From a virus, in the IMG/VR virus record IMGVR_UViG_3300042520_001624, positions 7,485-71,484 of that record: a stretch of 64,000 nt of DNA. The stretch is one strand, 5' to 3'. Both the position numbers and the translations under genes were made by a program. Position 1 is the first letter of the stretch. Each line of letters begins with the position of its first letter. Under the pieces are notes generated by a model that was not told the origin of the DNA, searched no databases, and saw only the letters and a program-made list of their open reading frames with translations. Below are positions 40,739 to 63,870 of this stretch, one piece after another.

Positions 40739-40974
40739 CGCTTGAAGCTCTCCGCAAGCTGTAGGAATTTGTCTAAAGGACAGTCCTGAACATGGTGTCC
40801 GGGTGGGAAGCCACACACCCGGCACTCTGCTTTTGTCCAGCCGTCAGCATGGCTAGTTTCTGTCGCTAGAGCTTCTGCGATGTCGACCATTTGCCCAATG
40901 GCAGCTTCGACCTTCTCTACACGCAGTTTGAGTTTGGCGATCTCTGCGACCAGATCAGCAGTTGCTTTGTTCAT
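40735..40974 (-). CDS. Hypothetical coiled-coil / zinc protein
   Basis: Starts MNKATADL; CRVC...H...C; ATGA overlaps on both sides. Confidence 0.55.
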   Translation of the reverse strand: MNKATADLVAEIAKLKLRVEKVEAAIGQMVDIAEALATETSHADGWTKAECRVCGFPPGHHVQDCPLDKFLQLAESFKR

Positions 40975-41320
40975 AGCTTCTCCGAACAGACCAAGCGAAA
41001 TCCTGTCATTTCGTGCACTACGTCTTCGTGAAGGGCGCCACAAAAGCCGGAGCTAGGACGCGGAATCCGGGAGTACATTCCATCCCACCACGAAAAAGCT
41101 TTAGTGACTAGGAAGTCAGGCACAAGCGGAATCCTCTTCGTTTGTCTCGGCTTAGCTTTCCGGGGAGTGTTGCAGGAGTGAGCATGGACTTCAGCTGCAC
41201 AGCCGGTTCCAAAACAGCTTTGCCCATCTTGTGATACAGCTTCCAGTCGTAACACTTCCCTATGGTTCGCACGTGGAAAAGCCCCAGCATGCCTGGAGCT
41301 AGCTGAAGCGCGGCGCTCAC
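40971..41320 (-). CDS. GxRL microprotein locus 1 (2 ORFs)
   Basis: 41320-41108 ends GFRLCLTS; 41123-40971 MPDFLVTKAFSWWDG...GFRLVCSEKL. Confidence 0.65.
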
Positions 41321-41688
41321 TGCAGACTCGCAGAGTAGTCCGAGAAGGACTGGGGGCAGAGTAGTCCTACCCGAACTTCTTTGCTAATCGCCGCTAAGCT
41401 TTCTGGAGCCACAGCCGTAGCGGTCAGGTGCTCGTTGAAGTTACCTTCGTCTTGGGCTTCGACGAGAGTAACGTTTGGGAAGAAGCAGTAAACTCCTGTG
41501 AGGTTTACGCGTACTCCAGAAGCGTTGTACTCCTGTAGTGTTCCCCAGAGGGACTGTCCATCGGCAAACATGACCTTTACGGTGAGCTTGCGAGCCGGTC
41601 CAAGAACTGCTGGTCTAGCTGTTGGGACTCCCGCAGGAGTGCTTCTGCTCGTCTTCTTGATTGGGGATCTCTGTGCGCGGTTGGACAT
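41317..41688 (-). CDS. Hypothetical protein
   Basis: 123-aa ORF in the operon. Confidence 0.5.
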   Translation of the reverse strand: MSNRAQRSPIKKTSRSTPAGVPTARPAVLGPARKLTVKVMFADGQSLWGTLQEYNASGVRVNLTGVYCFFPNVTLVEAQDEGNFNEHLTATAVAPESLAAISKEVRVGLLCPQSFSDYSASLQ

Positions 41689-41692
41689 AGAC

Positions 41693-42568
41693 CTAACTCC
41701 CTGAGATGCAGGCTGTGGGCGTGATTACAAGACAGCGCAAGCTGATAGAAGGAACGCTCCCAGTATCCGGGATTGTCGACATTGAGACAGTGGATGCCGC
41801 AGCTAACGCAGACAACTGCGCCTTCTTCCGTGAGGAGCTTGCCCCGTTCTTGGCGGCAGCAGCTGCATGTCTGGCCTTCGTGTGCTGAGTCCAGAGCTCG
41901 AAGATCTCGTCCCATTCTTTGGCTTTCAGTCTGTACTTTCTGTACAGCTTGGGCAGCTTGTAGTGCCTACAGATGCGGTTGAGCGTGCACTTTGTCTTGC
42001 CCAAGCGCTTGCAAGCATCCTCGACAGTCTCACGAGCAAAGTAGGACTTGGCCCCTGCGATTATTTGATGCTCGTAGAACTTCAGAACACGCCCTACAGT
42101 TTTGGAAGACTGCAGACGAAAGTTGCCTTTGGCATTGGGGTCCGCTTGGACGGTCGTCGTTCCCCAATTCAGGGCTACGGGCTTTACTTCCTCTAGCTCC
42201 ATGATTTTCAGGAGCTGGCGACGTCCTACTCCGACTTTGTCTGCCGCTTCTGGAACGCTCAGGAGTGTCGCAAGCCGTGGTCCAAGCTTGAGAGAGCCTG
42301 CTTTCTTTCGGATGGATATGAACGTCCGTCCGGGAAGTGCATGAACCATCTCTCGGTAGCTTGCGTGGGGCCAAGCTGCCTTTAGTACGTCGAGCTCTTT
42401 TGGAGACCAGTGAGCGGTACGTACGTGTAGTCCCATCTGGTTGGACCTCCAGCGGACTGTTCCTGCGCTTCTCTGTAGTTTCTTTGCGCAGTACTCTATG
42501 CCCCGGCGCTTGTAGTTCTTCTTCAGGAACTCAAGTTCTTCCTTGGACCAAAGCTTTCCGTTCGCCAC
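41693..42568 (-). CDS. DNA-binding protein with tandem HTH (Myb/SANT-like) repeats
   Basis: WSKEELEFLKKNY and WSPKELDVLKAAW repeats plus an LSVPEAADKVGV HTH. Confidence 0.65.
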   Translation of the reverse strand: MANGKLWSKEELEFLKKNYKRRGIEYCAKKLQRSAGTVRWRSNQMGLHVRTAHWSPKELDVLKAAWPHASYREMVHALPGRTFISIRKKAGSLKLGPRLATLLSVPEAADKVGVGRRQLLKIMELEEVKPVALNWGTTTVQADPNAKGNFRLQSSKTVGRVLKFYEHQIIAGAKSYFARETVEDACKRLGKTKCTLNRICRHYKLPKLYRKYRLKAKEWDEIFELWTQHTKARHAAAAAKNGASSSRKKAQLSALAAASTVSMSTIPDTGSVPSISLRCLVITPTACISGS

Positions 42569-42572
42569 GTGT

Positions 42573-42785
42573 TCAGCTCTTGCTGGTTAGGAGTTTTTCG
42601 ATGCGGAGATTGGACTTGAGAATCTCGACAAGCAAATCTTCGCTGGACAGCCCGGAGCCGTTACAGGTTTCGCAGGTCTTTTGTACGGTTTCCCACTCTC
42701 CCGAAGTCTTTCGCTCGAATACGGTGTACTTGGAACCTCCGCACTCTCTGCAGAGGAAGTTGTCCCTGTCGAACTCTGTAGCCAT
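42573..42785 (-). CDS. Small zinc-finger protein
   Basis: CRECGG and CETCNGSG. Confidence 0.6.
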   Translation of the reverse strand: MATEFDRDNFLCRECGGSKYTVFERKTSGEWETVQKTCETCNGSGLSSEDLLVEILKSNLRIEKLLTSKS

Positions 42786-42786
42786 G

Positions 42787-43002
42787 TTAGATGCCTGTTT
42801 TGTACGGGGGATGGAGGGCTCCTGAGCGTGTTTCAGTCTCGGGAGTTTCTTCTACGGGGGTGCCATTGGCGTCTGTAGGTCCCGGCTGTATTGCAGCGGG
42901 CACGCTTGGCGTCTTGATGACTTTCTCAGAGAAATACTGATTCACCCGAAGAAAGAACTGTTCAAGTGTCTCTCTCGGTTTGCGGCTGTCGAAGATCGAC
43001 AT
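42787..43002 (-). CDS. Hypothetical protein
   Basis: 71 aa with GAGG RBS. Confidence 0.5.
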   Translation of the reverse strand: MSIFDSRKPRETLEQFFLRVNQYFSEKVIKTPSVPAAIQPGPTDANGTPVEETPETETRSGALHPPYKTGI

Positions 43003-43009
43003 GGCTACC

Positions 43010-43390
43010 TCAGTTGGCGAAGGTTCGGGAGGTATTGTTCAGACGGAAGGCAGCGAGGGGCTTTACCTGATACCGGCGCCCCCCGCTTTCGATCCACATG
43101 TCCCAAGAGTAGGTACCTGGAGCGATGTAGGCAGGGAGATTGATGTCGAGGTTTGCTCGACCCAGACGATCTCCCTGCGTGGTCGATATACTGTACAGAG
43201 GCGACATGTTGTAGTCGACTAGCCGGAAGGACAACGTGGTCCCGATCAAGCTAGCTTCCTGTCCGCTGTTCAGGAGGATTTGCACCTCCATGTTCATGCT
43301 CTCACCCTTGGGAAGGTCGAGAGTGTTCGCGGTTACAACCTCATTGTCGTCTTCGGCAATGTTCCAGACACCTACAATGTACTTGTACAT
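43010..43390 (-). CDS. Hypothetical beta-sandwich protein
   Basis: 126 aa; PGTYSWDMWI Ig-like strand. Confidence 0.5.
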   Translation of the reverse strand: MYKYIVGVWNIAEDDNEVVTANTLDLPKGESMNMEVQILLNSGQEASLIGTTLSFRLVDYNMSPLYSISTTQGDRLGRANLDINLPAYIAPGTYSWDMWIESGGRRYQVKPLAAFRLNNTSRTFAN

Positions 43391-43410
43391 CTCTTACTCT
43401 TTGTTTTGAG

Positions 43411-44184
43411 TTACTCAGTCTCCTCTTCTGTAGCACTCTCGGCGAGCTTTTCCAGAAGGTTAGGACCATTCTCAAACCAAACAGGCTCGACTTCTTCGAT
43501 CTTGAGACCCTCAGCTTCAAGAACCGAGCGGACTTCGGCATCTAGAATCGTGTCCTTGTGGGTCAGACCGAAGGTGGGATAGACCTCTTTCGTGTCCGGA
43601 TCTGTGTAGAGCAGGATCACGAGCTTGGTCGAGGGGGGCTTCTTCGCCTTGGGGGTCTTGCCGCCCCCTGCGCCTTCTTGCAGGTTGTCCTCGGGAAGCC
43701 CTGTAGGCTCCTCCAGAGAGGTCTGCAGAGCCTCCATGAACGCGGAAGAGATGGTCGCATGCTTCCGGATCTCATCGGCATCTGCGCCCGCATCCATGAG
43801 GTCCTGAATCATGGTTGCAAACTCCGCATCCACCACCTCGGCGCTCACGTTGAACGAGAGCATGCCCAGGTCTGCATCCGTCTTGGACAGCCCATCCGGG
43901 AGCAGGACAACGGGGATACGGTCCGCTCCACGAGACTCTAGTTCCTCAACGCGGTGATGGCCGTCTACGATTCCGTACGTGCCGTCTTCGTTGCGTACGA
44001 CAGTAATCAGGTCCTGAAACCCGAACTTGTCGACAGAAGCCTGCAGAGTCTCCTTCTGCTGGGCGTTCATCTTCCGGTAGTTCTTACGCCGGATTGCCAG
44101 CTTGGACATCGGCACTGTACCGACAGTGACCTGATTGATTCCTGCATCTAGCGTTACGAACTTCTCTTTGGCTTCTTTGCTCAT
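43411..44184 (-). CDS. ParB/Srx N-terminal domain protein
   Basis: NYRKM...SVDKFGF...IVDGHHR motif. Confidence 0.8.
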   Translation of the reverse strand: MSKEAKEKFVTLDAGINQVTVGTVPMSKLAIRRKNYRKMNAQQKETLQASVDKFGFQDLITVVRNEDGTYGIVDGHHRVEELESRGADRIPVVLLPDGLSKTDADLGMLSFNVSAEVVDAEFATMIQDLMDAGADADEIRKHATISSAFMEALQTSLEEPTGLPEDNLQEGAGGGKTPKAKKPPSTKLVILLYTDPDTKEVYPTFGLTHKDTILDAEVRSVLEAEGLKIEEVEPVWFENGPNLLEKLAESATEEETE

Positions 44185-44471: not shown

Positions 44472-44473
44472 GA

Positions 44474-46562: not shown

Positions 46563-47614
46563 CGGGACTCCTGTATGGCTTTGTTGATGGTCTCTGCAAG
46601 ATCTGTCTGCTTGTCTGTCTCAACCTGAGAAGCAGCAGTCCAGATGTAGGATTCAGGATCTTCGCATCCGGCTACGGGATTGGTCATCTCGTACTCGCCT
46701 TCAGCATACGCTTGGTGGACTTGGTATCCGGACAGAAGCCCGGAGGATACCAGATCTTTCGCGTGCTCTTCTTGGTGCTGCTCTACCCGAGCGTACACCG
46801 AGAAGTCGGAGAGGTACTTCAGATCTGCCATCCACGTAACAAACTTGTCTGGACTGCCTGTGATTGACAGTGGCAGCCCTCGCAAGTCCAGGAACTTGGG
46901 AGTCAGGGCGGAGGGAATGCTTACACGTCCGTCTGTTGTAAAGACGCGTAGAGGCTTGTCTACGTCCGAGAAGTTCAGGGGGAGTAGAGATCCGCAGGAA
47001 ACTCCCCAAGAGGTTGTCGTTGTAGAGTCGTGCTCGTGTCCAAAGAACGCTTTGACAGTTCCACGATTGAACATGCCGATAAGCTTGCTCATGTCTGCGG
47101 CTGTAACACAGTCCGGACGGGGACTTGTGTCTACAAAACCGTAGTGAACTGCTAGATTGCAGCGCCCTTGGGCGGACAGTTGCTCCAGAACTTTCAAAGC
47201 TTCCATGGCATTTGGTCCGGAGTAGGGAACCATTAGCCAACGCTCTCCGCGGATCTGTGCAAACTGGGCTGTGTCGCAGATACAGACATTACCCGCATGG
47301 TTCATGGGAGCCAATGCGCTAGGAGCGTCATAAGACGCGATGTCATGGTTCCCTGCGATGATGTGCCACTCGACTCCGGTGGCAGCGATCATATCCAGAG
47401 ATGCGTTTAGAATCTGGGGGGATGGCTTGGGACCATCGAAGAAGTCCCCCAGCTGTACGATGTGCGTAACACCGTAGTGGAGCTTTGCGTACTCAACAAT
47501 CTGATAAACAGACTGGAGAATGTCTCGGCACCTGCGATTGAGACCGGCGACTACTGGACCCCCAAACTGTTTGTGGTTCCAGACATGGAGGTCGCCCAAC
47601 ACCAGGGTTGTCAT
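46559..47614 (-). CDS. sbcD: SbcD/Mre11 (T4 gp47-like) metallophosphoesterase nuclease
   Basis: GDLH, GDFFD, GNHD and GHEH motifs. Confidence 0.9.
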   Translation of the reverse strand: MTTLVLGDLHVWNHKQFGGPVVAGLNRRCRDILQSVYQIVEYAKLHYGVTHIVQLGDFFDGPKPSPQILNASLDMIAATGVEWHIIAGNHDIASYDAPSALAPMNHAGNVCICDTAQFAQIRGERWLMVPYSGPNAMEALKVLEQLSAQGRCNLAVHYGFVDTSPRPDCVTAADMSKLIGMFNRGTVKAFFGHEHDSTTTTSWGVSCGSLLPLNFSDVDKPLRVFTTDGRVSIPSALTPKFLDLRGLPLSITGSPDKFVTWMADLKYLSDFSVYARVEQHQEEHAKDLVSSGLLSGYQVHQAYAEGEYEMTNPVAGCEDPESYIWTAASQVETDKQTDLAETINKAIQESR

Positions 47615-47930
47615 GTGGTTACGCTCAGCCGCAGTCCAAGCCAGTCAAACTTGTAGTAGTCGCTTCCGGTTTGTTTGGTGTGGCGGTCTCTGTAAGAACG
47701 TACTTCTTCCCAAGAGTAAACGTAGCCTAGCGCTAGTTTTTGTCTGTTGTTTGAGTAGCTACGCACAGTCTTACACCGTTTCGTTCGTAGATTTTTCCAG
47801 CTGTCATTAGGTCGGGAAGACGGCAGTCCATTTGCCTTGCCCACATGAAATGAAAACCGTAACTTACTAGAGCGTGTTTTGCTCTCGGAGGTCGCGGCGT
47901 ACTGTTCCGCAGAAACGCTGGAAGTGGCAT
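47611..47930 (-). CDS. GxRL microprotein locus 2 (2 ORFs)
   Basis: 47930-47733 contains GVRLCVAT; 47766-47611 ...VYSWEE...LGLRLSVTT. Confidence 0.65.
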
Positions 47931-47932
47931 AG

Positions 47933-48006: not shown

Positions 48007-48010
48007 AAGC

Positions 48011-48030: not shown

Positions 48031-48036
48031 TGTATC

Positions 48037-48988: not shown

Positions 48989-49013
48989 TCTGACAAGAAC
49001 AACTCTTGTCAGA
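48989..49013. promoter_or_regulatory. Perfect 10-bp inverted repeat upstream of the SSB gene
   Basis: TCTGACAAGA-ACAAC-TCTTGTCAGA. Confidence 0.45.
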
Positions 49014-49149
49014 AGCTCATGCACAACCGCAGTCCTACCCAGAAGCAGGAGTCGTGCGGGCTTTGCGTTAGGTCGTTGTCGCGTCCGTACAGATCTACTT
49101 CAAAGTACGACCAGCGTTTACCGAACAGCCTGTACTCAACCTCGGACAT
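49009..49149 (-). CDS. GxRL microprotein locus 3 (1 ORF, not in track)
   Basis: MSEVEYRLFGKRWSYFEVDLYGRDNDLTQSPHDSCFWVGLRLCMSF. Confidence 0.65.
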   Translation of the reverse strand: MSEVEYRLFGKRWSYFEVDLYGRDNDLTQSPHDSCFWVGLRLCMSF

Positions 49150-49537: not shown

Positions 49538-49558
49538 GATGCGGTGCTCCTGATGCGC

Positions 49559-50475
49559 TTACGCGCGCTGTGCACAAGGAGAAGATAGCAACTCGCTACC
49601 GGCCTTGTCAAGCCCATTGTCATTGTGTGTCACTGCCAGCCGAAACGAACCTTGGCGTGTGTAGTCTCGGTCGGGCATTGGGTAGTCTCCCAGCAAGAAG
49701 TATTTTCCGCTGGCGATGTACCCGTTAGTGTAGGTTACGATCATACGTCACCGACAGTCGTAAGCCTATCGCCCCGTGAGATCCTGAAAGTTCTCTGAAA
49801 GCGAACAGATGCCCTGTGAGCACGCAAGAGCTGCTGTGCGTTCCTTCTACTGCCCAGCCAAAGCTTGCGTAGGTTACTATGGGCGGGTTTGGTCTGTACT
49901 TATGCATACGTCATTTTCAGACGAAACCCCATACGGTCTGTCCTAACTGTAATTCTGTAATGCCACTTCAGACAGTTAAAGTCTGTGGCCCTAGAAAGAG
50001 CTGAATTCTCCATGTCGTAGAAGCAGGGGGCCACAGTCTCTACTTGAGCTTCGTCATGCATACGTCATCTCCAGCCTAAACCCCATCTGATTGCGTTCAG
50101 TATGGTCTTTAAACTTCCAAGACCAGTCGCCGTCTTGTGCTTCTGACAAAACAGCTGTGGCCTGTTCGCGCCAGCTGGGAGACACAGTCTGTACCCAAGC
50201 AGCCTTCACTTGATCTTCGTCATGCATACGTCATTTCCAGTCGCAAAGATCCGTACTTTGGCTGGAGGTCGCGTTTCGCAATAAAACTATCCAGCAGCAA
50301 GCTTGTGTTTAGCGAGTGAAAGCTGTAACTCCAGATTACCATGTGTTTATGGCGCATAAAACACTCCCAGTCGGAACGAGCCATTGTTGCCATGCTCGTC
50401 CCCAGGAAACTGCCAGCTTTGAAAGTGCGACACTTCTGGATACGTCAGTGCGTTACCACGTGAAAGCACTCTCAT
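49559..50475 (-). CDS. GxRL microprotein locus 4 (6 ORFs)
   Basis: 50475-50347 (SFRLGVFYAP), 50357-50220 (SLRLEMTYA), 50227-50054 (GFRLEMTYA), 50061-49900 (GFRLKMTYA), 49907-49725 (GLRLSVTY), 49744-49559 (SFRLAVTH). Confidence 0.75.
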
Positions 50476-50480
50476 GTAAG

Positions 50481-53246: not shown

Positions 53247-53881
53247 TTAGCGGGTTTGAGTGGTGAGTCTGAGTCCGAAGATGGTGGTTCGGGCTTGAGG
53301 ACGACTGATTGTGCCGAAACGTATAGCGTGTACAAACAGTATTGTTTCGTCGTCCCAAGACGCATTGGCAGCGTACATTACACTACGCATAGTCTTATCC
53401 CGAAGTACTTTGTTGTTGCCGACTGCGGAAAAGGTTCGCCGCTAAGAAAACAGGACTCGTCTTCATACGCAGTAAAGACTGCCAGTCGGGCTCTTAGTGC
53501 AGACATAGTCGCAGTCCCATGTAGCGAAGACGTCGCGTTTTCGGCTCTATGCCAAAGGACATTTCGCCGTTGAGCAGCAACCAGCGCGTATCGCAGTCTC
53601 CTACAAACGAGTGTCGGAAATACAGACTCACTTGGCACCTACGCACAGCCGGAAAGACATGCGGTAGCGGTATACACTCTTTTCAAAGTCTGTTTCTCCG
53701 TTTGCAAAGTGTGTTGTTCCGTAGGAAAACCCGAAGATGTGTACCATGTAGCGATCCTCAGCGAGAATCTCGGGTTCTGGTCTGTTAGCTGGGCTGTCCA
53801 TGGATAGGGCCTGTGTTTGAGAAGGGAGAAGTAGTCGTTCCAAGATCCGCCCAGAATCTTCTGAACTCGGAAAGTCTGCAT
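53247..53881 (-). CDS. GxRL microprotein locus 5 (5 ORFs)
   Basis: 53881-53639 (ILGGSWND...SLRIAT), 53747-53628 (SFRLCVGAK), 53631-53494 (GLRLCLH), 53506-53378 (GIRLCVV), 53390-53247 (ASWDD...GLRLTT). Confidence 0.75.
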
Positions 53882-53888
53882 GTGTATA

Positions 53889-53912
53889 GGGTGGGGCTGC
53901 AAAGCCCCACCC
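53889..53912. promoter_or_regulatory. 9-bp hairpin at the head of microprotein locus 5
   Basis: GGGTGGGGC-TGCAAA-GCCCCACCC, next to an AT-richer promoter-like stretch at 53915-53945. Confidence 0.45.
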
Positions 53913-53963
53913 GCAACACACTATGTATTTATGCAGAGTCGCAAGGAAGTTTCCGGGAGATAG

Positions 53964-54944
53964 CTACTTGTCGAGGAGCTTGGTCTTGGCTGCGCCAGCA
54001 TACAGCTTCATCGTGGACTGTCGGGTGATCTTGTAGATCTCTTCGGGAGTGACGTTGAGCGCCGGGTGCTTCCCGATCATGGAGACGAGCAGGTCTTCGA
54101 CCATCTGGGCGCTGACACCCTGCTCTGTCTTGAGATGCGTACAGGCGTGCTTGACTGCCAGACCGAGCATGGGCTTGGGTTCCCCCGCCAGGGCTTCCAG
54201 CACGCTGTTGGCTGCCTCGGAGGGAGCGTTAGCGACCGGAGAGGCTACAGGTGCGTTCACGGGCACTGCAGGGGCTGCTACGGGCTCCTGCGGAGCCTCT
54301 GCCTTCTTCCCGGACATGGCAGCCCGGAAAAGCTCCTTGGCTTCCTCGGGTTCTACGTTCAGGACTTCTGCCAGTCGGAAGGCCAGAGTATTGGACCCCC
54401 TAAGCTTGTCGGGCTCTGCCAGCTTCTTGATGGCTCCCGCATGGTCCTTCCAGACCTTCAGAGCATCCTGCATGGTCTTGATCTTCTTACAGTCTTCTTC
54501 AAAGAGGAAGAGGACGTCGTTGACCAGCTTGGGGCTGTCGACTTCCGGAGCGACGTGGACCTTGGGGGGTGCAACCGCGGGAGGAGCCACTACGACCGGA
54601 GGGGGCTCGGGGGCTGCAACTTCCTGAACGACCGGAGCGTACGTGACGATGTTCTCCGGCTTGAACAGGGGTACCTGTCGCTCGTCGGTCTGCTGCAGGA
54701 GTTCCTTCTTGAAGGCTTCCGCAATGTTCTGCGGGTTCACGCTGGGGTTGATGGTGACGGTCAGGTCTTGGGGTGCTGCTCGGTAGTTGAACTTCCGGAT
54801 GTAGTCGAAGAGTTCTGTGTACTCTTCGTAGCTGTCGACGACCACTTCGATGCTGACCGTCTTCTTCGGGTCGTGGCCGTCGTGGTGGGTTCGGTACTCG
54901 CTGAAATCAACGTTGAGATCTCGGATGGTCATGGTCTCGCTCAC
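53964..54944 (-). CDS. Hypothetical protein with Pro/Ala-rich linkers
   Basis: 326-aa ORF with typical codon usage. Confidence 0.65.
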   Translation of the reverse strand: MSETMTIRDLNVDFSEYRTHHDGHDPKKTVSIEVVVDSYEEYTELFDYIRKFNYRAAPQDLTVTINPSVNPQNIAEAFKKELLQQTDERQVPLFKPENIVTYAPVVQEVAAPEPPPVVVAPPAVAPPKVHVAPEVDSPKLVNDVLFLFEEDCKKIKTMQDALKVWKDHAGAIKKLAEPDKLRGSNTLAFRLAEVLNVEPEEAKELFRAAMSGKKAEAPQEPVAAPAVPVNAPVASPVANAPSEAANSVLEALAGEPKPMLGLAVKHACTHLKTEQGVSAQMVEDLLVSMIGKHPALNVTPEEIYKITRQSTMKLYAGAAKTKLLDK

Positions 54945-55258
54945 TTGGTCTGGGGTGGAAGGTAGATGGAGAGGACAACGCCGGAGGCGTCTACCTGGGT
55001 CACTTTGGCGTGCATGTTGTAGCCATGCTGCTTGAGCCGGAAGACTACTTCCTTGAGGATGCTACGAGCCACGTATCCGGCTTGCTCCAGTCCGTGATAG
55101 ACAGCAACTGCAGTGTTGTCGTGCGGGTTGCGAGGCTCGATCTCTAGCGACAGTGTCTTGTTGAGGATCGAGGCGGGGTTGGGGATGTCGTGATGCTTGT
55201 AGCCCGCGAGGGTACAGTCGAACAGCTTGAAATACTCGGGATCGGTTGTGATTGTCAT
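54941..55258 (-). CDS. HIRAN domain protein
   Basis: LAGYKH...LEIEPRNPHDNTAVAV...AGYV motif. Confidence 0.75.
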   Translation of the reverse strand: MTITTDPEYFKLFDCTLAGYKHHDIPNPASILNKTLSLEIEPRNPHDNTAVAVYHGLEQAGYVARSILKEVVFRLKQHGYNMHAKVTQVDASGVVLSIYLPPQTK

Positions 55259-56127
55259 TGTTCTTCTTTCAGAGTGAGGGAGAGTCTTAGGCCAAAGGCT
55301 TTGGAATAGTAAGCTGTGTGGACATAGCTGCTCCAGCCACCGACCAGCGCAGCTACGGGCACTTGCAGGTCCCAAGCATGTCCTGCGGTGTGTTTTACGT
55401 TACCGAAGTACACAGTCTTATGCTCTTGTAGGAGACGCCGTGAGTTGGATATGAACTTCTGAAAGACTGGCTGGGAGGTCGAAAGAAGCCGCGCGTGCTT
55501 TCGTCCCACGCGAACCACAAAGACATTGTTATTGAATGCACAGTCTTAGTCCTACGTATTCGGCGTCCGTCTCAACGAATCGGATACTTACGGCTCGGAG
55601 TGGATTAAAGTCGTCCCACGAAGTCCAAATCATCCGTTTGACATACAACATAGCCGAACTCCCATGCAGTGATACTTTTTAACGACCAGCAGAATGACGG
55701 GCGCGTGCTTTGGTTGCCAGTCGTCGTTCCAAGACGTGTTTGCGATAGCCGTCGCACTCATTTTAGGCGTTACGAAACGCATAGTCTCAGTCCGAAGTAC
55801 AGGGCTTGGGTGCCTCTAAAGTAAGACCAGTGTACACGGCGATAGGAGGTTACTTGGTCGTCCCAAGAGATCCAAGACTTTACTAGATGATCTTCGTGCA
55901 CAGCCGTACTCCCAGATAGACTCTGTCTGAACTGTCGCTGTAATACCACGTCATGCTAAGGTGCCGATTGTCGTGATCGTCCCAAGAGATCAAAGGTTTG
56001 ACTCTTAGATTGCAGTACACAGTCTTACTCCTCTCCACGGGGCTTTTGTTTGCGCGTAGTTGCATGCTGCGTCTCTGGACGGTAGCCACCCTTCGTCCCA
56101 GCTGCCGAAGAAGTAGTAGCCGTACAT
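55255..56127 (-). CDS. GxRL microprotein locus 6 (7 ORFs)
   Basis: 56127-56005, 56020-55883, 55901-55770, 55782-55630, 55651-55529, 55541-55395 and 55413-55255; all have [S/A]W[D/N] and [G/S][V/L/I]RL[C/S]. Confidence 0.8.
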
Positions 56128-56129
56128 GG

Positions 56130-56990
56130 CTAGGCGAGGCACTTTTGAATCTCTGTTTGTAGCCATGAGGATTCTACGTCGTCTGGATCGAGGGTCGGGG
56201 GGAGTCTCACAAAGCCAGCACGGACTCCGTACAGCTTTAGCTTCATGGACAGGGCTTCGCCTTTTCTCCAGGCGTCTCCGTCCAGAACAACTGCAACAGG
56301 TCTGCGTGCTTCTCGGAGGATCTGAACTTGCGCCTCCGACCAAGTCCCGAGAGTAGCTACTGCATTGGGCCAGACGTACGCTACGTCCAGAGTGCCTTCG
56401 ACAACGAGGAGGGGTTCCTCGGTCTGTATGTACACTTGCTTCTGGTTGTAGAGAATCTCACCGCGGAACATACCGCGTTTGTACATGTAGGTCAGGTTGC
56501 TCTTGCCGAGGGTCCTACCTACATAACCGAGCCATGTTGTATTGTCTGCGTCGAGAACTGGAATGATGATTCTGTTTCTGAAGTCTTGCTCGTCTTCAGA
56601 CAGAGGACGAGAAGTAGAAACACCCATTTGAGTTTGTGCGATTGCGACGGGTTGGATACCGCGCGATCTGGCATACGAGTAGGCGGTGCTAGTGACCGCT
56701 GTAGGGCGTTCTCCGATGGGTACCCACCCTGCGGGCGGATCGAACACGGGGAGGGCTTTCCCGCGGCTCCTAGAGGCCGCTACGGCTGCCTCGTCGGCTT
56801 CCCAGCCATCGAGGTGCCCGAGCTTGTGGCAGCGGAAGCAAAACCACTTACCCGTTGCCCTGTCAAGGGTCAGGTTCTTTTTCTTGGTAGCGTGACCATA
56901 CATGACGCAGAACGGGCAGACAGCTCGCGTGGTCTGAACCCCACGAGTCCCATCCTGCAATGCGGAAACTACCAGACTGTTTTTAGACAT
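56130..56990 (-). CDS. DNA primase (zinc finger plus TOPRIM)
   Basis: CPFC...CFRC, NRIIIP, VGR, VVEGTLD and LDGD; start reassigned to MSKNSL. Confidence 0.85.
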   Translation of the reverse strand: MSKNSLVVSALQDGTRGVQTTRAVCPFCVMYGHATKKKNLTLDRATGKWFCFRCHKLGHLDGWEADEAAVAASRSRGKALPVFDPPAGWVPIGERPTAVTSTAYSYARSRGIQPVAIAQTQMGVSTSRPLSEDEQDFRNRIIIPVLDADNTTWLGYVGRTLGKSNLTYMYKRGMFRGEILYNQKQVYIQTEEPLLVVEGTLDVAYVWPNAVATLGTWSEAQVQILREARRPVAVVLDGDAWRKGEALSMKLKLYGVRAGFVRLPPTLDPDDVESSWLQTEIQKCLA

Positions 56991-57251
56991 GATGTGTGTT
57001 TGTGGACAGTCGAAATCCCCAACCGTTGCGGTGGACGCTCTCGCGGGCATACGACTTTCCAAACGCTGTCATGCTGGACAAAAGCACGCTGGTTTTATTG
57101 AAGTAGCCGCTGCTGGTTAGAACGAAGCGCATAGCCGTACTCCAAAGTTGTAAGCTGTGTACCAGCAATCAAAGCGGTTGAAACTCCGTTTGGAAGCTAT
57201 ACTTAGCCAGTTTCCCTGGAAAACTACTTTACTTCCCGAGATAGGAGACAT
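56983..57251 (-). CDS. GxRL microprotein locus 7 (2 ORFs)
   Basis: 57251-57117 (FQGNW...GVRLCASF); 57132-56983 (GFRLSTN). Confidence 0.7.
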
Positions 57252-58557
57252 CGGACATTCTCGACATGTGGCGAAAGTGGGGGATAGGTCCGAGCACAGT
57301 TCCGGTCCTGCCGTAGTACCGATCCGCGTCGATGTACCAGAGGTATCCGTCGGAAGCTTTCATGTCCGGCTGGGGAGTAGCCGTCAGGAAGAAGTCAGAC
57401 AGTCGGTACTTGTGGACGCTGTCTGCAACGTCCTTGCGTGTCAGCATGGGCATGACTTGTCCCGGGCGTGCTTCCGGACGCTTGGACTGCGTAGCGGTCA
57501 AGACCCAGTTGGGAGCTTCCTCTCGGGCTGCCATGTTGTACAGAGCTGTCCAGACGGTCTTGCCGCGGCCATACTCGGACTCACGATCCTCGCGCTTGGA
57601 GCTAGCGATCAGATCGCCGTAGTCCATAACGCGGTATCGGAATCGGGTATTGTGCTCCTTCTCCTGTCGATCAAACCAAGCAACGACTTCTTTTTCGTTG
57701 ATGGCTTGCTGCTCGAACTTCTCGACAACAACCTTGCCGACTCGTCCGGACTGTCGCAGCTGCTTGTATACCCGCAGAGCTTCCGCACGTAGCTTGGCGT
57801 TGAGCAGGTCGTTAATCGGTATGCCCAGGGTCGCTGCGATGACACGGCGATGGATCTCTTCGCGGGGGAGCTCCATGGAGAGATACGCAACGTCCTCGCC
57901 ATGCATGGAGGCCACAGCAGCTAGCTGACACAGGTATACGGACTTACCAGCTTTGGAATCCATGAGAGTCGTGGTGAGCGTGCCGCAGGGCAGCCCGCCA
58001 CCGAACTCGGAGTCCAGCTCGCAGATACCTGTCGGCATCTGCTCTGCGCGGGTAGAACACTCAAGGAGCAACTCGGAGTCTTCGCCGATCTCCGAGGCTT
58101 TGGTCTCTATGTCTGCTGCGGCAGCACCCAACTGGTCGCAAGCTGCCATGAGGTCGACAAGGTCTCCGAACTTGGAGCCGTTGCCGTAACGCTCTACAGC
58201 TTTGGAGACAAGACCCTGCATCATGTGACGGCGAACTGGCTCGACCAGCTCTGTCACAGTGGCGTCGATGTCAACCTCACCATCTTGAGAAGCCAACGCT
58301 TCTCCGATGTTGAGAACTGTCTGCTCGTCGATCTTGCCTTCTGACATCCAGAGAGAAGCACGCTGGCAAACGAGGTCCTCTGTGGGATTGTTGTGGTCGA
58401 CGGCAACGGCCTTGGCAAGCTTCACCAAAGTCTGGTTGGTTGGGTCGGCTAGCTCGTCGGGAGCTACTTTGTTTCCGATGCGCAGCCAGAACAACTTGTG
58501 GCTTGCGCAGAGGACAGAAACCTGCCGTTCAAACTTGGGATTGAGGTTGTAGCTCAC
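57229..58557 (-). CDS. Replicative DnaB-like helicase
   Basis: PTGICELD...GGLPCG, AGKS, YLSME, DYGDLI, TATQ and VADS motifs. Confidence 0.8.
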   Translation of the reverse strand: MSYNLNPKFERQVSVLCASHKLFWLRIGNKVAPDELADPTNQTLVKLAKAVAVDHNNPTEDLVCQRASLWMSEGKIDEQTVLNIGEALASQDGEVDIDATVTELVEPVRRHMMQGLVSKAVERYGNGSKFGDLVDLMAACDQLGAAAADIETKASEIGEDSELLLECSTRAEQMPTGICELDSEFGGGLPCGTLTTTLMDSKAGKSVYLCQLAAVASMHGEDVAYLSMELPREEIHRRVIAATLGIPINDLLNAKLRAEALRVYKQLRQSGRVGKVVVEKFEQQAINEKEVVAWFDRQEKEHNTRFRYRVMDYGDLIASSKREDRESEYGRGKTVWTALYNMAAREEAPNWVLTATQSKRPEARPGQVMPMLTRKDVADSVHKYRLSDFFLTATPQPDMKASDGYLWYIDADRYYGRTGTVLGPIPHFRHMSRMSDVSYLGK

Positions 58558-59316
58558 GCTTGGGTCCTTGTTGTGAGTCGGAAGGTTGCGCCAGGGGGTC
58601 GAGGAACATCAAACTGTAATTGGCACCTTCGCACGTCGTAGAGTCCTCGGTAGAATTGGAGGTTTCCGCCGATCCGTATAATGCCGATGGCTACGTTGTA
58701 GGTCCTCACGGCAGTCCTACGCAGAGTCGGAAGGTTCTACCAGTGTATTTGTTGTAGGGAGCAAGATGGCCGAGGCTGTAGTGGCACCACGATACACGGT
58801 ACATCGAGTAGCCATTCCGAACATGCAAAGTCACCATTGTATCCTCGTGCACAGTCGGAGTGTCTGGTCGTCGCAGCGCATTGTAGGTCCCCAAGAACAG
58901 GCAGTTTTGTACACCCGTTGAGCGGTGTCTGACCAGTAACAACCGAAACCTATCACTATCCGGGCTTTACGCATAACCGGACTCCGTCAACGCTGTGTCT
59001 ATCTTTTGAGTTGCTTGAGTAGCGGCGGAATCTGCACCACTTCGCGTCTACGAAAGACGACCACTTTACTTGTACGAAAGACATAGTCGCATTCCGTCGA
59101 GGTTGTATCTGACGTATCTATGAGCCCAATCGAAACGCAGATCGCACCTGTGTGCATCTAGGAACTGCGCCCACTTTACTTGTACGAAAGACATAGTCTT
59201 ATCGTGTCTGTGAAGTACCGAAGGTTTGCAAAGTATACGAGCCAGTTTCGTCTATAGAACTGGCCTTTCCAGCAGCTCCAAGAAGTTTGAATCACGTAAG
59301 TGTCGGAGCTCACCAT
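58554..59316 (-). CDS. GxRL microprotein locus 8 (6 ORFs)
   Basis: 59316-59176 (TIRLCLSYK), 59194-59066 (GMRLCLSYK), 59084-58956 (GVRLCVKPG), 58974-58831 (TLRLCTRIQW), 58837-58706 (TFRLCVGLP), 58709-58554 (TFRLTT). Confidence 0.75.
59061..59198. repeat. 28-bp exact direct repeat spanning two microprotein junctions
   Basis: CCACTTTACTTGTACGAAAGACATAGTC at 59061-59088 and 59171-59198. Confidence 0.9.
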
Positions 59317-59894
59317 ACGTACTCTCCGGACTGCACAGCTTTCAGCAGAGACTTGGCTGCTTGTTGATTGGCTTGCTGCGCTGCTTCGAGCTTGAGCAGG
59401 TAGTCTCGCTCGCTTGTCTTTTGCAGGCGGAGTTTTTGCCATTCTGCAATGGCGATTCTGCTTTCGGGAGTGAGCACGGTCCGGGGGACTCCGAGTTGGT
59501 GGAGCCAGGACATAGGCCCTTCCAGCTCTCTCGCCAGCGCATTCGGAGAAAACACAAACCCGAACGGGGGATGCGTCAGCTTTTCCGGGACATCGGAGCC
59601 GAGGAAGGCGTTGTACCGGTGGAGGACCCAAGCAGCCGGGGGGATGTCCAGAGCGTACAGCTGGCCGATGCAGAGCTTGGCGGCAGGACTGATCTGCTTC
59701 GGGGGGCTAGCCCAGTGCCCGCACAGCCGCCGCAGGGCCGTGGTCCAGAGCTTGGTGTAGTACGGGTCTGGCTGGGCTTCTGCGGGGGCTACAGGGGCCA
59801 CAGGGAGCACGGCGGCGTGGAGTAGCTCAGGGGTCGGAAAGGGCGGAAGGTTGTCGATCCGCAGGGTCCTGCTGAAGACTTGCAGAGGTTCCAT
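59310..59894 (-). CDS. Hypothetical protein (replication module)
   Basis: 194-aa ORF between the two helicases. Confidence 0.6.
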   Translation of the reverse strand: MEPLQVFSRTLRIDNLPPFPTPELLHAAVLPVAPVAPAEAQPDPYYTKLWTTALRRLCGHWASPPKQISPAAKLCIGQLYALDIPPAAWVLHRYNAFLGSDVPEKLTHPPFGFVFSPNALARELEGPMSWLHQLGVPRTVLTPESRIAIAEWQKLRLQKTSERDYLLKLEAAQQANQQAAKSLLKAVQSGEYVW

Positions 59895-60521
59895 GTTGGC
59901 TCTCTATGGTGGAGGTGTATGTAACTGCAAGCCGGAAGCCTGAGATGTCTACTTCGGTGTTGACGTCTTTAATGCAGGGGTAGAGGAGAGCGTCACCTTC
60001 CCATTCCCAGTGTGAGTACACGCCGAGGCTCACGTCCAAGAAACGCATAGTCTTACCGAGATGTTTTTGTGGTGGAATTTTGCGTGAAACAAGGTAGAGA
60101 ACTTCTTGCACCACTGATGTGAAAAGTGAGAGTAGACTATTGAATACATAGTCTTACTCCCACAACAAAAGCACGGTACTCAGCTCGTGTTACTTGCTGC
60201 GCGTAATCTAGGTTGGAGCCTGCGTAGGACCAGTGGAGATAAACTACTCTGGATACGAGCAGCATAGTCTGAATCCTCCGATGTCGAGTTTATTGTCGTT
60301 GGAGTGAGCACAGCGTGTGCGCGTAGCATCGCCAGCCCAAAACCAATGCGCGTACACACCTAGTCCGTATTCTATGTACAGCATAGACGAAAAGTCCCTA
60401 CGTAGGTGCTCTCATAGCTATATCGCTCGGGGAGAGTCAGACGAGCGTTCATGCCCCAGTGATATGGGGCATAGTTGGCTATCTTGCGCTTTTCTGGCTC
60501 AACGTTCTGTTTTGACGACAT
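59827..60521 (-). CDS. GxRL microprotein locus 9 (5 ORFs)
   Basis: 60521-60372 (TFRLCCT), 60384-60244 (GFRLCCSY), 60265-60137 (GVRLCIQ), 60149-60030 (SVRLCVSWT), 60048-59827 (GFRLAVTY). Confidence 0.75.
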
Positions 60522-61857
60522 AGCCGAATCTTTCGTAGGCTTGTTTACGTTCTTGGGAATGCTTTTCGAGCCACTGGCAGCCTTTGTGTTGCTGCTTGCC
60601 TTGGCATCCGCATCCCCTGTCTAAAACATCGAAGACGTAGAAGTTGTCTTTTGTAGTACCATCTTTCATGTGTCGGCGGGACCCTCTGCCAACTTTCTGA
60701 ATGATGTCGACAACAGCTTTACCTCCCGATGCTTGTATGACAGTGGCGATCTCGGGAATGTCCACACCCTGTCGGAAGATCGGGGTTGAGACCAGAGTAC
60801 CTACAGTTCCGTTGACGAGTTGCCGAACGGCTCTGTTGGCATCGTTCATTGGTACTTTGTCGTTGACGTGAACTGCGGTAGCGCCAAGCTGTTTCATTAG
60901 AATGGCTTGGTGCTCGTGTGTCCTTACGAAGACAATACGAGGTGCTGGCGTTGTTGCTATCAGCCGGAGAATCAGGTTGTTCCGGACTGTATTCTTGACG
61001 ATAGCGTGCTTCTCCCAAGCAACATACCCCATTGCTGCGGACACGGGAGCATGGTGCATGGGCACCATTGTGAGATTGGCTTTTGCTGTGATGCCATCAG
61101 ACGCTGCCTGTGAAGGCATGTACTTGTCGATGACATCTCCGAAAGCTCCAATGGTATAGATGCTTTTCTTGTCGGAGCGGTGTAGGGGTGTCCCGGAAAA
61201 CCCTATTCGTATCTCTGCGTTTATGCAGGAGAGAACAACTCCGAGGTAGGTATTACCTCCGCTGCCGTGAACCTCATCTCCGAGCACAGCAACGAAAGAC
61301 TCTATCTTGTCTTTCGGGAGTTTGGCAGCACTATTTACTGTCGCAACAATGACAGGTCGCTTGAGCTCTTTGTAGGAGTCTCCGAATCTCCCTGCTGTGA
61401 TCTCTGCAACTTTCTTAATTCTGTCGTACATTTCGTGCATGAGCTTGATGCTCGTGACAAGGACAAGAGTAGGTGCATTGATCTCTGCGACCAGGGCTGC
61501 AATGGTTGTCGCTTTGCCAGTCCCGGTTGCGTGTTGGATGATGCCTTTCCGGCTCTCCCAGATGGCGTCTAGCGCCCGGACTTGGTGCGGCCAGAGACCG
61601 TCCCGGGGGACAGCGAGGGGCGCCACCGATGGCTTACGGGAGGCAACAGCCACCTCCATACCTCGCTCCCGTGCCGCAGCGACCACGCGCGCTGCAAGCC
61701 CAGCCGGGAACATTCGAGTGCTGGAAAGAAGACAGTGGGAGGTGTCTTTGCCTTGTGGGTTGGACGAGTGGAATGTGAGGTACTCACGGAGAAAAGACTC
61801 CTCTTGCGTTGTTGCTTGGATTATCTTGGCGTATGAGTTTCCAACAGCGAGCTGCAT
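60499..61857 (-). CDS. Superfamily 2 helicase (UvsW-like)
   Basis: LWPHQ, ATGTGK, DEVH, SGTP, GVDIP and QKVGRGSR motifs. Confidence 0.9.
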   Translation of the reverse strand: MQLAVGNSYAKIIQATTQEESFLREYLTFHSSNPQGKDTSHCLLSSTRMFPAGLAARVVAAARERGMEVAVASRKPSVAPLAVPRDGLWPHQVRALDAIWESRKGIIQHATGTGKATTIAALVAEINAPTLVLVTSIKLMHEMYDRIKKVAEITAGRFGDSYKELKRPVIVATVNSAAKLPKDKIESFVAVLGDEVHGSGGNTYLGVVLSCINAEIRIGFSGTPLHRSDKKSIYTIGAFGDVIDKYMPSQAASDGITAKANLTMVPMHHAPVSAAMGYVAWEKHAIVKNTVRNNLILRLIATTPAPRIVFVRTHEHQAILMKQLGATAVHVNDKVPMNDANRAVRQLVNGTVGTLVSTPIFRQGVDIPEIATVIQASGGKAVVDIIQKVGRGSRRHMKDGTTKDNFYVFDVLDRGCGCQGKQQHKGCQWLEKHSQERKQAYERFGYVVKTER

Positions 61858-62387
61858 GTCGGAATACTAACACACAGCCGCGTAGACACTACAACTCTGC
61901 GGGTTTCAGAAGCGTAGACAGACATCTCCCACTTGTTCTTGGGATAATCCTTTTCGCACCAAGCAGGGAGAAAAGTGTGCTGGGCTAGCGGTCTGGGACG
62001 GTCATGCATAGTCGAAAGCTCCTGTCTCTGAAGTCGCTCTCAACGTCTCCTCTCCATTTTGCTGGGGAGGTAGACCGAAAACGGCCGAACGAGGGGTAGA
62101 ACGCGGTAACAACTACATGAAACATAGTCTTATCCCCAAGTAAGAGGTTCCGCTAGTTTTCAGGCGGTCTCCAATACCTTGTGTGCCGAGGGACAGCCAA
62201 CTTGATCCGAACAAGAAGTAGTAGGCTACAGAGATGCGCACAGACGTAGTCCTAACCAGAGTTGGTTGAAACCCGCATGTCTGCGTCGAGAGTCTTTTGT
62301 CTTTTCCAAGCTACTAAAAAGCAGACGGTCTTTAGCTTCGTAGTAGGTAACGCCGCAGATGCTGGGATACCTAAGCCGCAGGTACAT
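61821..62387 (-). CDS. GxRL microprotein locus 10 (4 ORFs)
   Basis: 62387-62226 (GLRLCASL), 62241-62113 (FGSSW...GIRLCFM), 62125-61985 (SFRLCMT), 62009-61821 (STRLCVS). Confidence 0.75.
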
Positions 62388-62625
62388 AGGTGTTTGAAGG
62401 TTCATCGAATTTCCACTGTCGCATTAGTTCGTCGTACACGATCTTACCGAGGTGCTTGGCGATGTCCGGGAGGTACACGTACACAACCCCGTTTGCACGG
62501 TGCAACGTATACGTCTTGTCGGATATGCGATTGTAAAGTGTCCGCTTTGAAAAGCGGAACATCTTTACTGCCAAGTCGACGTGGACTAGCTCACGTCCCA
62601 TACCTTTGATACGTGTCTGCTTCAC
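62371..62625 (-). CDS. Small HTH (excisionase-like) DNA-binding protein
   Basis: VDLAVKMFRFSKRTLYNRI helix-turn-helix pattern. Confidence 0.55.
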   Translation of the reverse strand: MKQTRIKGMGRELVHVDLAVKMFRFSKRTLYNRISDKTYTLHRANGVVYVYLPDIAKHLGKIVYDELMRQWKFDEPSNTYVPAA

Positions 62626-63083
62626 GGCTCCTCCTTGTCTGGCTCCGATGCAATGAGCAGGAGCTTCTCTGTTTCGTACTTGGCGAAGAGATTCTTTACG
62701 TACTCTTCTGCCACGCGACTTGCAGCTCTGGCAATCGCAAGATCGACTTGCTCGTTTACTTTGGTTGCAATACGCCGCTGTAGATCTTTATTGTCTTGCA
62801 GCTGTAGTACTTGCAACGTCGTTTCGTACACGATGCGGTCTTCGATAGATTTGTCCAGTGCAGTAAGAGCTGCATTCTTGTTAGGGTTGGGGGTACTGTA
62901 GTTCCCAAAGAGCTTGTTGAGGGCTCGCTCTTGGGCGGACTCCATTACACGCCGGATGGCGTAGTCAGTTTCGTGCTCTCTGGCGGAGAGGCTGCGCTTG
63001 TCGGACAGCCGAGCAGCGACCTGCTTTTCGATGCGAGCAAGCGTGGCCTTTTCCAAGGCTGCTTTGGCATCGGTAAGAGACAT
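62622..63083 (-). CDS. Hypothetical helical protein
   Basis: 153 aa from MSLTDAK. Confidence 0.55.
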   Translation of the reverse strand: MSLTDAKAALEKATLARIEKQVAARLSDKRSLSAREHETDYAIRRVMESAQERALNKLFGNYSTPNPNKNAALTALDKSIEDRIVYETTLQVLQLQDNKDLQRRIATKVNEQVDLAIARAASRVAEEYVKNLFAKYETEKLLLIASEPDKEEP

Positions 63084-63093
63084 AGGAGTCTTT

Positions 63094-63597
63094 CTACTCG
63101 CCACGGGTTTTGTTCTTTCGTGCGGAGGGGGTTTGTCGACGGGGAGGTGCTCGGAAAGCGCGCTGGTATGCTGAGTGTGCGTCTCTCCAGGCATGGTCTT
63201 TGATGTAGCGGTTCATGCTTTCTGTGTAAGACCGAATGTACTCGTTCTTTGCGACTTCAAGAATCTGTGCTTGGTACTCCGGAGTAGACATGTGCTCTTC
63301 GGCCATCTCTTTTGCCTTCTCCAGAGCAGCCTGTGGAACCTCGTGATTCTCAAGAGCACCGCGGTATCTAGAGACAATGTAGTCGTCTCCGATCCGACGA
63401 ACGAACTCTTCTTTGACGAGCTCACGAAGAGCGTCCGGAGTCGCGAGGTACCCGGTCATTACCTCGATCACAGCGTCTCGGGCTTGTTGTTCCAGAAGCT
63501 GAATGACGTCTCGGGCTTCTGTGTTCTTGAAGCCTTCTTTCAGACTTTGCAGAACTTGTGCATAGCTCGGAGGTTTGGAAGGCTTATTCTTTGCCAT
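63094..63597 (-). CDS. Hypothetical helical protein
   Basis: 167-aa ORF. Confidence 0.55.
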   Translation of the reverse strand: MAKNKPSKPPSYAQVLQSLKEGFKNTEARDVIQLLEQQARDAVIEVMTGYLATPDALRELVKEEFVRRIGDDYIVSRYRGALENHEVPQAALEKAKEMAEEHMSTPEYQAQILEVAKNEYIRSYTESMNRYIKDHAWRDAHSAYQRAFRAPPRRQTPSARKNKTRGE

Positions 63598-63870
63598 GAT
63601 CTTGTTTTGTCGAGAGTGTGGTTACGCACAGCCGAATACTGTTGGAGGAGTCGTGACTTGAAGGTTTCTCGGGCACTGTGGTTTTCTTGCTGTTTTGAAA
63701 GTTCAGGTCTTTGGCGAGGGTGTCTTCAAACACACCTCCGATCATTAGGCGCTCTTTGTAGCTGCGCATAGTCTTAGTCCCCTCAGCCGGAAATATGCCC
63801 ACGCCAACCCCAGCCGACTGCGTAGAAGTTTGAGATCAGGGGAGAGGTCGTCGGGAAAGGCGCTAGACAT
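63584..63870 (-). CDS. GxRL microprotein locus 11 (2 ORFs)
   Basis: 63870-63745 (GLRLCAATKSA); 63769-63584 (LMIGGVFED...SIRLCVTT). Confidence 0.7.

Follow-up and report, generated by a model that had tools for sequence, protein, structure and literature searches.

A predicted family of chained microgenes between the replication genes of a lake-water phage

The stretch of DNA analysed here, the window, comprises 64,000 nucleotides (nt), bases 7485-71484 of a linear 71,484-bp IMG/VR virus contig (IMGVR_UViG_3300042520_001624) with an estimated completeness of 81%, so that about 19% of the genome is missing; unless stated otherwise, coordinates are window positions. Pfam and PHROGs scans place virion proteins (a major head protein, baseplate J, and proteins with LysM and PKD domains) in a plus-strand half, and a replication and recombination module on the minus strand between about 40 kb and the end of the contig. 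This module encodes a SNF2/ResIII helicase, a DnaB-like helicase, a primase, a fusion of uracil-DNA glycosylase (UDG) and PolA, a gp32-like protein, Mre11- and Rad50-like proteins, a ParB-like protein, a HIRAN-domain protein and an HTH regulator. Between these genes lie chains of very small open reading frames (ORFs), which we interpret as predicted microgenes and which are the subject of this report.

A first-pass annotation of the window, made by eye from the letters, had described 42 short minus-strand ORFs in 11 loci. Translation of the minus strand of 40971-63870 recovered all of them with the same unit counts, namely 2, 4, 5, 6, 2, 7, 5, 6, 1, 2 and 2 from high to low coordinates; the ORFs encode 39-80 amino acids (aa; median 47.5). 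They run in the direction of the replication genes and are packed head to tail. Larger genes account for 17,232 of the 22,900 nt of this region, small ORFs only for another 5,380 nt and neither for 288 nt, meaning that small ORFs occupy 5,380 of the 5,668 nt (95%) outside larger genes. Each unit opens with a short hydrophobic stretch, followed in most cases by a Trp and then by some 20-27 poorly conserved residues, the motif [G/S/T]-hydrophobic-Arg-Leu and a tail of 2-6 residues. The middle residues are rich in aromatic residues, Arg and Ser, and overall composition is high in Tyr, Phe, Trp, His, Cys, Arg and Ser and low in Ala and Glu.

The C-terminal motif is far more frequent than expected by chance. 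Among stop-to-stop ORFs 25 or more codons long, 40 on the minus strand of the region have [GST][FLVIM]RL no more than 17 codons from the stop, compared with four on its plus strand, six and five on the two strands of 1-40970, and a mean of 3.2 (standard deviation 1.8, maximum 8) in 100 dinucleotide shuffles. An excess over shuffled controls, one of the points on which the first-pass annotation said its proposal could fail, is present. Likewise, [FLVIM]RLC occurs 12, 11 and 10 times in the three minus-strand frames, with 29 of the 33 occurrences above 40.9 kb, and only 2-3 times in each plus-strand frame.

The pattern is conserved at the level of the peptide. The motif Arg is present in all 42 units, encoded by AGA (14), CGG (11), CGA (10), CGT (3), AGG (2) and CGC (2); the motif Leu is present in 41 units through six codons; and the residue before the Arg is hydrophobic in 41 units (Thr in the other), with 14 codons used at this position in all. 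As Arg and Leu are kept across synonymous codons, such a pattern would not arise from a nucleic-acid element alone. The aromatic SW(D/N)-like motif reported upstream held up in part: by hand count a Trp lies 20-27 residues ahead of the motif Gly, Ser or Thr in 28 of the 42 units, and this element is therefore common rather than universal. Codon usage scored best in the annotated frame for 36 of the 42 units, with a mean codon log-likelihood ratio of 0.01 in that frame and -0.16 to -0.30 in the others.

The units also behave as a single family when compared as proteins. With leave-one-out profiles, 34 of the 42 rank above every non-member ORF of the contig and 19 of the 42 score E<0.01, and a full family profile run against the contig's 1,683 ORFs gave no non-member better than E 0.33. 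For several pairs the similarity extends over the whole protein (E 5e-13, 1e-11, 1e-10 and 3e-8), the best being units 60244-60384 and 59827-60048, which are 43% identical over 44 aa. An all-against-all blastn of the units found no DNA-level repeat beyond their physical overlaps. Even the closest and youngest pair, 59066-59194 and 58956-59084, shares only 77 of 129 nt; the 52 differences involve all four bases and all substitution types and are spread over codon positions 21/11/20. Thus the view that the ORFs form one real family conserved at protein level is borne out. Per-unit Pfam and PHROGs scans returned nothing consistent (scattered single matches, E>=0.018), and an ESM Atlas feature search gave no usable match. 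A separate 126-aa minus-strand ORF at 43010-43390 carries two hydrophobic-F-R-L motifs together with VW and SWD and resembles two fused units; the family profile did not match it at E<=10.

All 11 arrays lie on the minus strand and are described here from high to low coordinates. In array 1 (63584-63870), units 63745-63870 and 63584-63769 end in GLRLC and SIRLC, the Leu-Cys codons of the upstream unit containing the start of the other. Array 2 (61821-62405), upstream of the SNF2/ResIII helicase gene, comprises units 62226-62405, 62113-62241, 61985-62125 and 61821-62009, neighbours overlapping by 16, 13 and 25 nt; the ATG of the helicase gene falls in the tail of the last unit, which has orthologues (P0005, P0013) on other contigs. 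The five units of array 3 (59827-60521) are 60372-60521, 60244-60384, 60137-60265, 60030-60149 and 59827-60048, the last of which ends in GFRLA, contains no embedded start and has orthologues P0009, P0014 and P0015. Array 4 (58554-59316) lies upstream of the DnaB-like helicase gene, with six units at 59176-59316, 59066-59194, 58956-59084, 58831-58974, 58706-58837 and 58554-58709, and the stop of the last overlaps the GTG of the helicase gene. Between this helicase gene and the primase gene, array 5 (56983-57251) holds units 57117-57251 and 56983-57132.

The longest chain, array 6 (55255-56127), is situated between the primase and HIRAN-domain genes and contains the clearest SW[D/N] units. Its seven members are 56005-56127, 55883-56020, 55770-55901, 55630-55782, 55529-55651, 55395-55541 and 55255-55413; in six of them the next start lies within the Leu-Cys codons, and the last ends in GLRLS. 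Array 7 (53247-53881), upstream of the UDG-PolA gene, consists of units 53639-53881, 53628-53747, 53494-53646, 53378-53506 and 53247-53390. The first of these is atypical, with a 36-codon tail overlapping the next unit, and fails the leave-one-out test. The UDG-PolA gene itself (50481-53237, minus strand) encodes a family A DNA polymerase with an N-terminal domain of the uracil-DNA-glycosylase superfamily (UDG E 6e-13, DNA_pol_A E 6e-66). Downstream of it, array 8 (49559-50508; units 50347-50508, 50220-50357, 50054-50227, 49900-50061, 49725-49907 and 49559-49744) forms a subfamily with the ending R-L-x-M/V-T-Y and no Cys, in which the next start is placed after the motif and overlaps are 8-20 nt. 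Array 9 is a single unit (49009-49149) upstream of the gp32-like gene, ending in GLRLC and recovered by leave-one-out at E 0.0014. Array 10 (47611-47930; units 47733-47930 and 47611-47766) lies upstream of the Mre11-like gene, whose ATG overlaps the stop of the last unit. Finally, array 11 (40971-41290) contains units 41108-41290 and 40971-41123, the latter being peripheral (leave-one-out E 100).

The way in which the units are joined is itself regular. In 27 of the 28 units whose motif is followed by Cys, the Leu-Cys codons read xT[A/G]TG[C/T] and so include the triplet ATG or GTG; of these 27 embedded starts, 24 open an ORF of at least 35 codons, namely the next unit. Embedded starts are absent from all 14 units lacking Cys, which still hold G/S-x-R-L; eight of them close their array and, of the remaining six, five come from the array 8 subfamily. 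The Cys that the first-pass annotation counted within its motif is therefore largely a by-product of the next unit's start codon, because the TG-codon that such a start leaves in the upstream frame can encode only Cys, Trp or stop. Neighbours typically overlap by 13-25 nt, and in several arrays the last unit overlaps the start of the downstream large gene. Codon choice in the motif is also skewed relative to the long genes (GGA for 19 of 27 Gly codons versus 23%, AGA 33% versus 10%, CTA 33% versus 11%), with the result that a Shine-Dalgarno (SD)-like GGA(G) sits 8-11 nt ahead of the embedded start.

In geometry this is a translationally coupled chain, the downstream start overlapping the upstream end with an SD-like element before it. 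Given the embedded start and the GGA 8-11 nt upstream, a ribosome finishing one unit would be well placed to restart on the next and, at the end of the array, on the large replication gene. The units would share a transcript with the replication genes. Promoter- and terminator-like sites were not enriched within the arrays (8 versus 8.0 expected and 22 versus 17.5, respectively). We also considered a single long repeat protein made by serial frameshifting and rejected it: no slippery sequence was seen by eye at the junctions, each unit has a start of its own, and independent assemblies agree. A likeness to WD40 repeats was likewise dismissed, as the order of motifs does not fit.

How variable are these units within the phage population? 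The sequence was found in 24 public runs from 23 studies (one of these may be its source), all lake-water or freshwater metagenomes except two labelled only 'metagenome', with at least half of the sampled words present in eight of the 24; no RNA run is among those listed, a blank that is evidence neither way on expression. Strains were compared through assembled contigs, which drop rare variants and leave low-level variation invisible. At that resolution, a contig from run X3 shows one difference across 53402-55692, and one from run X9 shows none in 55576-56071 or in 58650-59096. A 16.7-kb contig from run X5 is about 98% identical to the reference (297 other letters over ~16.5 kb), and all of the structural differences found in X5 fall inside arrays: a 166-nt loss between the direct repeats 50034-50074 and 50200-50240 (D11) that removes one unit of array 8, the replacement of 57140-57229 (90 nt, array 5) by 227 other letters and, on a second contig, a 144-nt loss (63626-63769) that removes one unit of array 1. 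Orthologous peptides are mostly conserved (P0013, P0014, P0016), with P0010 diverged in its centre. Since arrays are near-identical across samples and orthologues mostly conserved, variability lies between paralogues, with whole-unit turnover in addition, and not in ongoing hypermutation. The label 'hypervariable' originally attached to the units thus stands for an old divergence of the paralogues and falls where it would imply continuing mutagenesis.

Beyond this lineage, our searches did not encounter the family. Against 1.84 billion cluster representatives, HMMER with the family profile yielded 12 matches at E<=1e-3, of which four are the window's own units, three are close orthologues (P0005, P0009, P0010) and five are long proteins that we judged spurious, four being internally repetitive by sequence and P0006 matching in 30 stretches. 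No FGE-like protein was present among the eleven of these matches that were examined. A word-indexed homologue search with the family profile (A1) found just three matches of near unit length, all from this lineage, and related-locus searches returned none with P0009 (viral and metagenome contigs) and none with P0005 (metagenome contigs). Two viral contigs whose polymerase is 42-43% identical carry no such arrays, and tblastn of the polymerase against GenBank phages gave no match above 33% identity. Within the reach of these searches, the predicted family is confined to this lake-water phage lineage. On a distantly related viral contig (L002), about 2.4 kb at 13300-15700, downstream of the polymerase region, lacks long ORFs and may hold RNA genes.

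Some features elsewhere on the contig deserve mention in passing. Upstream of the window, an 880-aa ORF adjoins the portal gene (contig positions 3492-6134, minus strand); it is taken from its position as the large terminase and would be unusually long for one, an insertion such as an intein being possible. Direct-repeat families D1-D4 (5459-9828 and 15426-15461) correspond to about 25 aa that several head-module ORFs have in common near their N-termini. In the fibre-to-lysis region there are two direct-repeat pairs, 86-90% identical, at 33999-34060/34938-34999 (D5) and 34902-34943/36838-36879 (D10).

Taken together, the arrays contain a paralogous family conserved at the peptide level, whose members overlap head to tail through embedded starts and are gained and lost as whole units between strains. 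The interpretation that we favour, and regard as probable though by no means secure, is that about 42 predicted microgenes (34 robust, eight peripheral) form one lineage-specific, chained family whose products may be diversified binders or decoys. The family would have grown by local tandem duplication together with gain and loss of units, followed by strong divergence of the protein middles. Its products may then be small binding or decoy peptides made alongside the early and middle replication genes and aimed at host factors, which we hold to be their most likely role. Several observations weigh against this interpretation. The coding score of the units is 0.01 per codon whereas that of the long genes is 0.195; an excess of Arg, Ser, Cys, Trp and His could fit weakly constrained sequence too; eight of the 42 units are recognised by a four-residue motif and position only; and the link to FGE domains considered below comes mainly from one short block, with no match in direct Pfam tests. 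Moreover, the coding status of the units is itself a prediction, and their role as binders or decoys is pure inference.

One alternative concerns a resemblance to the FGE-sulfatase type of C-type lectin (CLec) domain. In the largest class of targets of diversity-generating retroelements (DGRs), the variable region (VR) lies at the C-terminus of such a domain (Wu et al. 2018, PMC5758913), and this part of the background to the first-pass annotation is sound. Among the DGR targets listed with that paper is one of only 44 aa, which may bear on whether stand-alone targets the size of a VR are already on record. In CLec1 category b or TvpA-like targets, the C-terminal VR segment shows the same order of (G)(G)SW, about 24 residues, G-hydrophobic-R-L and a short tail before the stop, and in both these segments and our units the stretch between the anchors is aromatic-rich and variable. 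Unlike the CLec targets, the units are 39-80 aa long with no preceding scaffold of ~200 aa, far from a complete FGE/CLec fold (~250 aa); unlike the VR segments they have no Pfam match, and no reverse transcriptase (RT), template repeat (TR) or adenine-specific variation was found in the contig. The conserved mid-segment Cys/Arg-Ser-Ala-x-Arg motif of the FGE consensus is also absent from the units.

Profile comparison supports the resemblance in part. Using hhalign, the family profile A1 aligned with 120 or 70 FGE homologues over 42 columns (Prob 45-48%, P ~2e-4), in a register that sets SW on RGG(S/C)W and G-x-R-L-C on GFRL, and reversed controls gave P 0.77 and 0.88; the homologue set was seeded from a protein found with A1, a mild bias. 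The C half of the profile alone found the right site (P 0.0023), whereas the N half alone went to a wrong SW site (P 0.14). Permuting all columns reached the observed score in 0 of 150 trials and permuting only the upstream columns in 4 of 150; most of the signal is thus the G-x-R-L block, and the order of the upstream columns adds little. In the word-indexed search, which favours proteins containing G-F-R-L-C words, the only longer protein at E<=10 (E 0.3) contains four FGE-sulfatase domains, all of which terminate in G-x-R-[LI]-C. The spacing from Trp to the motif is 24 in two FGE C-termini counted by eye (P0018, P0022), compared with 20-27 in the units. Direct tests were negative: none of the 42 units matched PF03781 by hmmscan at E<=10, a search in which the HMMER filters drop most matches above ~0.1, and a six-frame search of the 71.5-kb contig for this Pfam FGE-sulfatase family gave no candidate at the same threshold. 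The proposed likeness to an FGE/CLec C-terminus is modest, an in-register profile alignment with its signal mostly in one block, and does not extend to any Pfam match.

Because the layout of the units is like the last two strands and variable loop of an FGE-type CLec domain, descent from such a C-terminus is possible, and we would put it somewhat below an even prospect. A functional connection is a separate matter. Free-standing ends of this kind might complete a truncated scaffold, or swap strands into host FGE proteins, for instance immune sensors, and so block them; we regard this as unlikely. It gains from the in-register match, from the shared spacing and from the four-domain protein, the last being what a search biased to G-F-R-L-C words would favour. 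Defence-associated STAND receptors with FGE-sulfatase-like sensor domains are indeed on record (PMC13581612). That the units are not predicted to fold alone would suit a piece of a larger fold, if weakly: AlphaFold2 gave no secondary structure for unit 55532-55651 with a 36-row alignment (predicted local distance difference test score, pLDDT, 59.6; predicted template-modelling score, pTM, 0.14). On the other side stand the lack of any Pfam FGE match in unit or contig, and the misplaced alignment of the N-terminal half of the profile. The partner postulated in the first-pass annotation, an FGE/CLec protein lacking its last strands, did not materialise in the 71.5-kb contig, and no structural protein ends with the motif. 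Complex prediction for unit A2 and an FGE domain truncated ahead of its final strands (A3 residues 1-195), run without controls, scored 0.31 against a mark of 0.32 and speaks neither for nor against binding. The fuller form of this idea, close to that of the first-pass annotation, has the phage carry a heritable library of about 42 free-standing CLec variable-loop hairpins that mimic the last two strands and ligand-binding loop of FGE-type sensor domains. A ribosome relay would produce them alongside the replication genes, either as a diversified set of decoys or poisons for FGE-type immune receptors of the host (STAND or kinase sensors) or as interchangeable inserts completing such a fold in trans. 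Such a library would be both a phage counterpart of and a counter-measure to DGR-diversified host sensors, reached through expansion of a gene family and not retro-mutagenesis; we consider it quite improbable.

A different possibility is that translation itself is what matters, the arrays acting in cis to pass ribosomes on to the replication gene while the peptides have no role of their own. The Trp and G-x-R-L would then serve as nascent-chain or termination-context signals. Much of the geometry described above is compatible with this, including starts embedded in the motif at a short fixed distance from the stop, last units that overlap the start of a large gene in several arrays, motif codons skewed to the SD-like GGA, AGA and CTA, and poorly constrained unit centres. 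The ribosome exit tunnel also holds a peptide about as long as one unit. However, retention of G/S-x-R-L is just as good in the 14 units that embed no start, a spacer role leaves 42 units unexplained where direct gene overlap would suffice, and the free gain and loss of units between strains is not accounted for. We think a purely cis-acting relay quite improbable.

The units could also be variable or template repeats linked to a DGR, with its RT in the missing 19% of the genome. They are indeed of VR size and end like FGE-type VRs, and the contig is incomplete by estimate. However, the RT and TR that the first-pass annotation proposed to look for were both missing: an RVT_1 search of the 71.5-kb contig gave no match, and neither the 14 direct-repeat families nor the unit blastn contained a TR/VR pair with mismatches at template adenines. 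Population variation concentrated in a VR was not seen in the assembled contigs, a comparison that passes over rare variants; X3 and X9 are near-identical to the reference (one and no differences over the arrays covered) and X5 differs by whole-unit insertions and deletions. Differences within the youngest pair involve every base and every codon position, and orthologues are mostly conserved. The absence of RVT_1 and of a TR/VR pair from the contig, the all-base differences and the stability of the arrays across samples together speak against the units being products of an active DGR, and linked cassettes of this kind are very unlikely. Silent cassettes for gene conversion of a tail fibre were rejected: in the structural module (1-40000), none of the ORFs that reach 100 codons has the motif at its end, and the only two plus-strand ORFs of this size that match above 40 kb are antisense to replication-module genes. 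Least credible of all is that the units are not genes but a nucleotide-level repeat or chance pattern, which the short ORFs and weak coding scores might allow but which is already disfavoured by Arg and Leu kept across all synonymous codon families, the lack of any DNA-level repeat beyond physical overlaps, 40 motif ORFs versus 3.2 in shuffles and a frame open over 95% of the space between the larger genes.

How, then, do these predicted diversified microgenes compare with known systems? Phages have clusters of small early or host-takeover ORFs among their replication genes. Such clusters share with our arrays the strand of the replication genes, tight and often overlapping packing and fast turnover between strains; unlike them, the 42 units all belong to a single paralogous family whose anchor motifs are fixed, and their starts are built into the conserved motif of the preceding unit. 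Arrays of precursors of ribosomally synthesised and post-translationally modified peptides (RiPPs), such as the prochlorosins, comprise many short paralogous peptides with one conserved and one hypervariable part. The units resemble these in being short paralogues with a recognition-like conserved segment and a divergent one, but they are conserved at both ends and not in a leader, and their setting is a phage replication module. No family of RiPP modifying or processing enzymes was found among 30 larger window proteins scanned with Pfam, ten of them also with PHROGs; matches were to replication, recombination, HTH, HIRAN and structural families only. Translationally coupled operons likewise have overlapping stops and starts and an SD-like element inside the upstream gene. 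Unlike the usual case, the overlap here is 13-25 nt, recurs up to seven times in succession and is written into a conserved peptide motif. A limited literature search found no description of such arrays. Because of this, and because the units have no Pfam or PHROG match and no relatives beyond the lineage, we rate the predicted microgene arrays as lying outside known kinds of system.

To conclude, this phage spends about 8% of its 71.5-kb contig (5.8 kb) on one predicted microprotein family that standard gene callers and family libraries miss. If translated, the family would be, as far as our searches reach, a paralogous expansion unusually large in relation to the size of the phage, and a clean natural instance of a mini-binder design with fixed anchors and a free loop. 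The grammar of the chain, in which one conserved peptide motif would also supply the ribosome-binding site and start codon of the next unit, could serve as a directly testable model of serial translational coupling. Should the link to FGE/CLec domains prove true, it would tie phage counter-defence to the FGE-type sensor domains now emerging in bacterial immune receptors.

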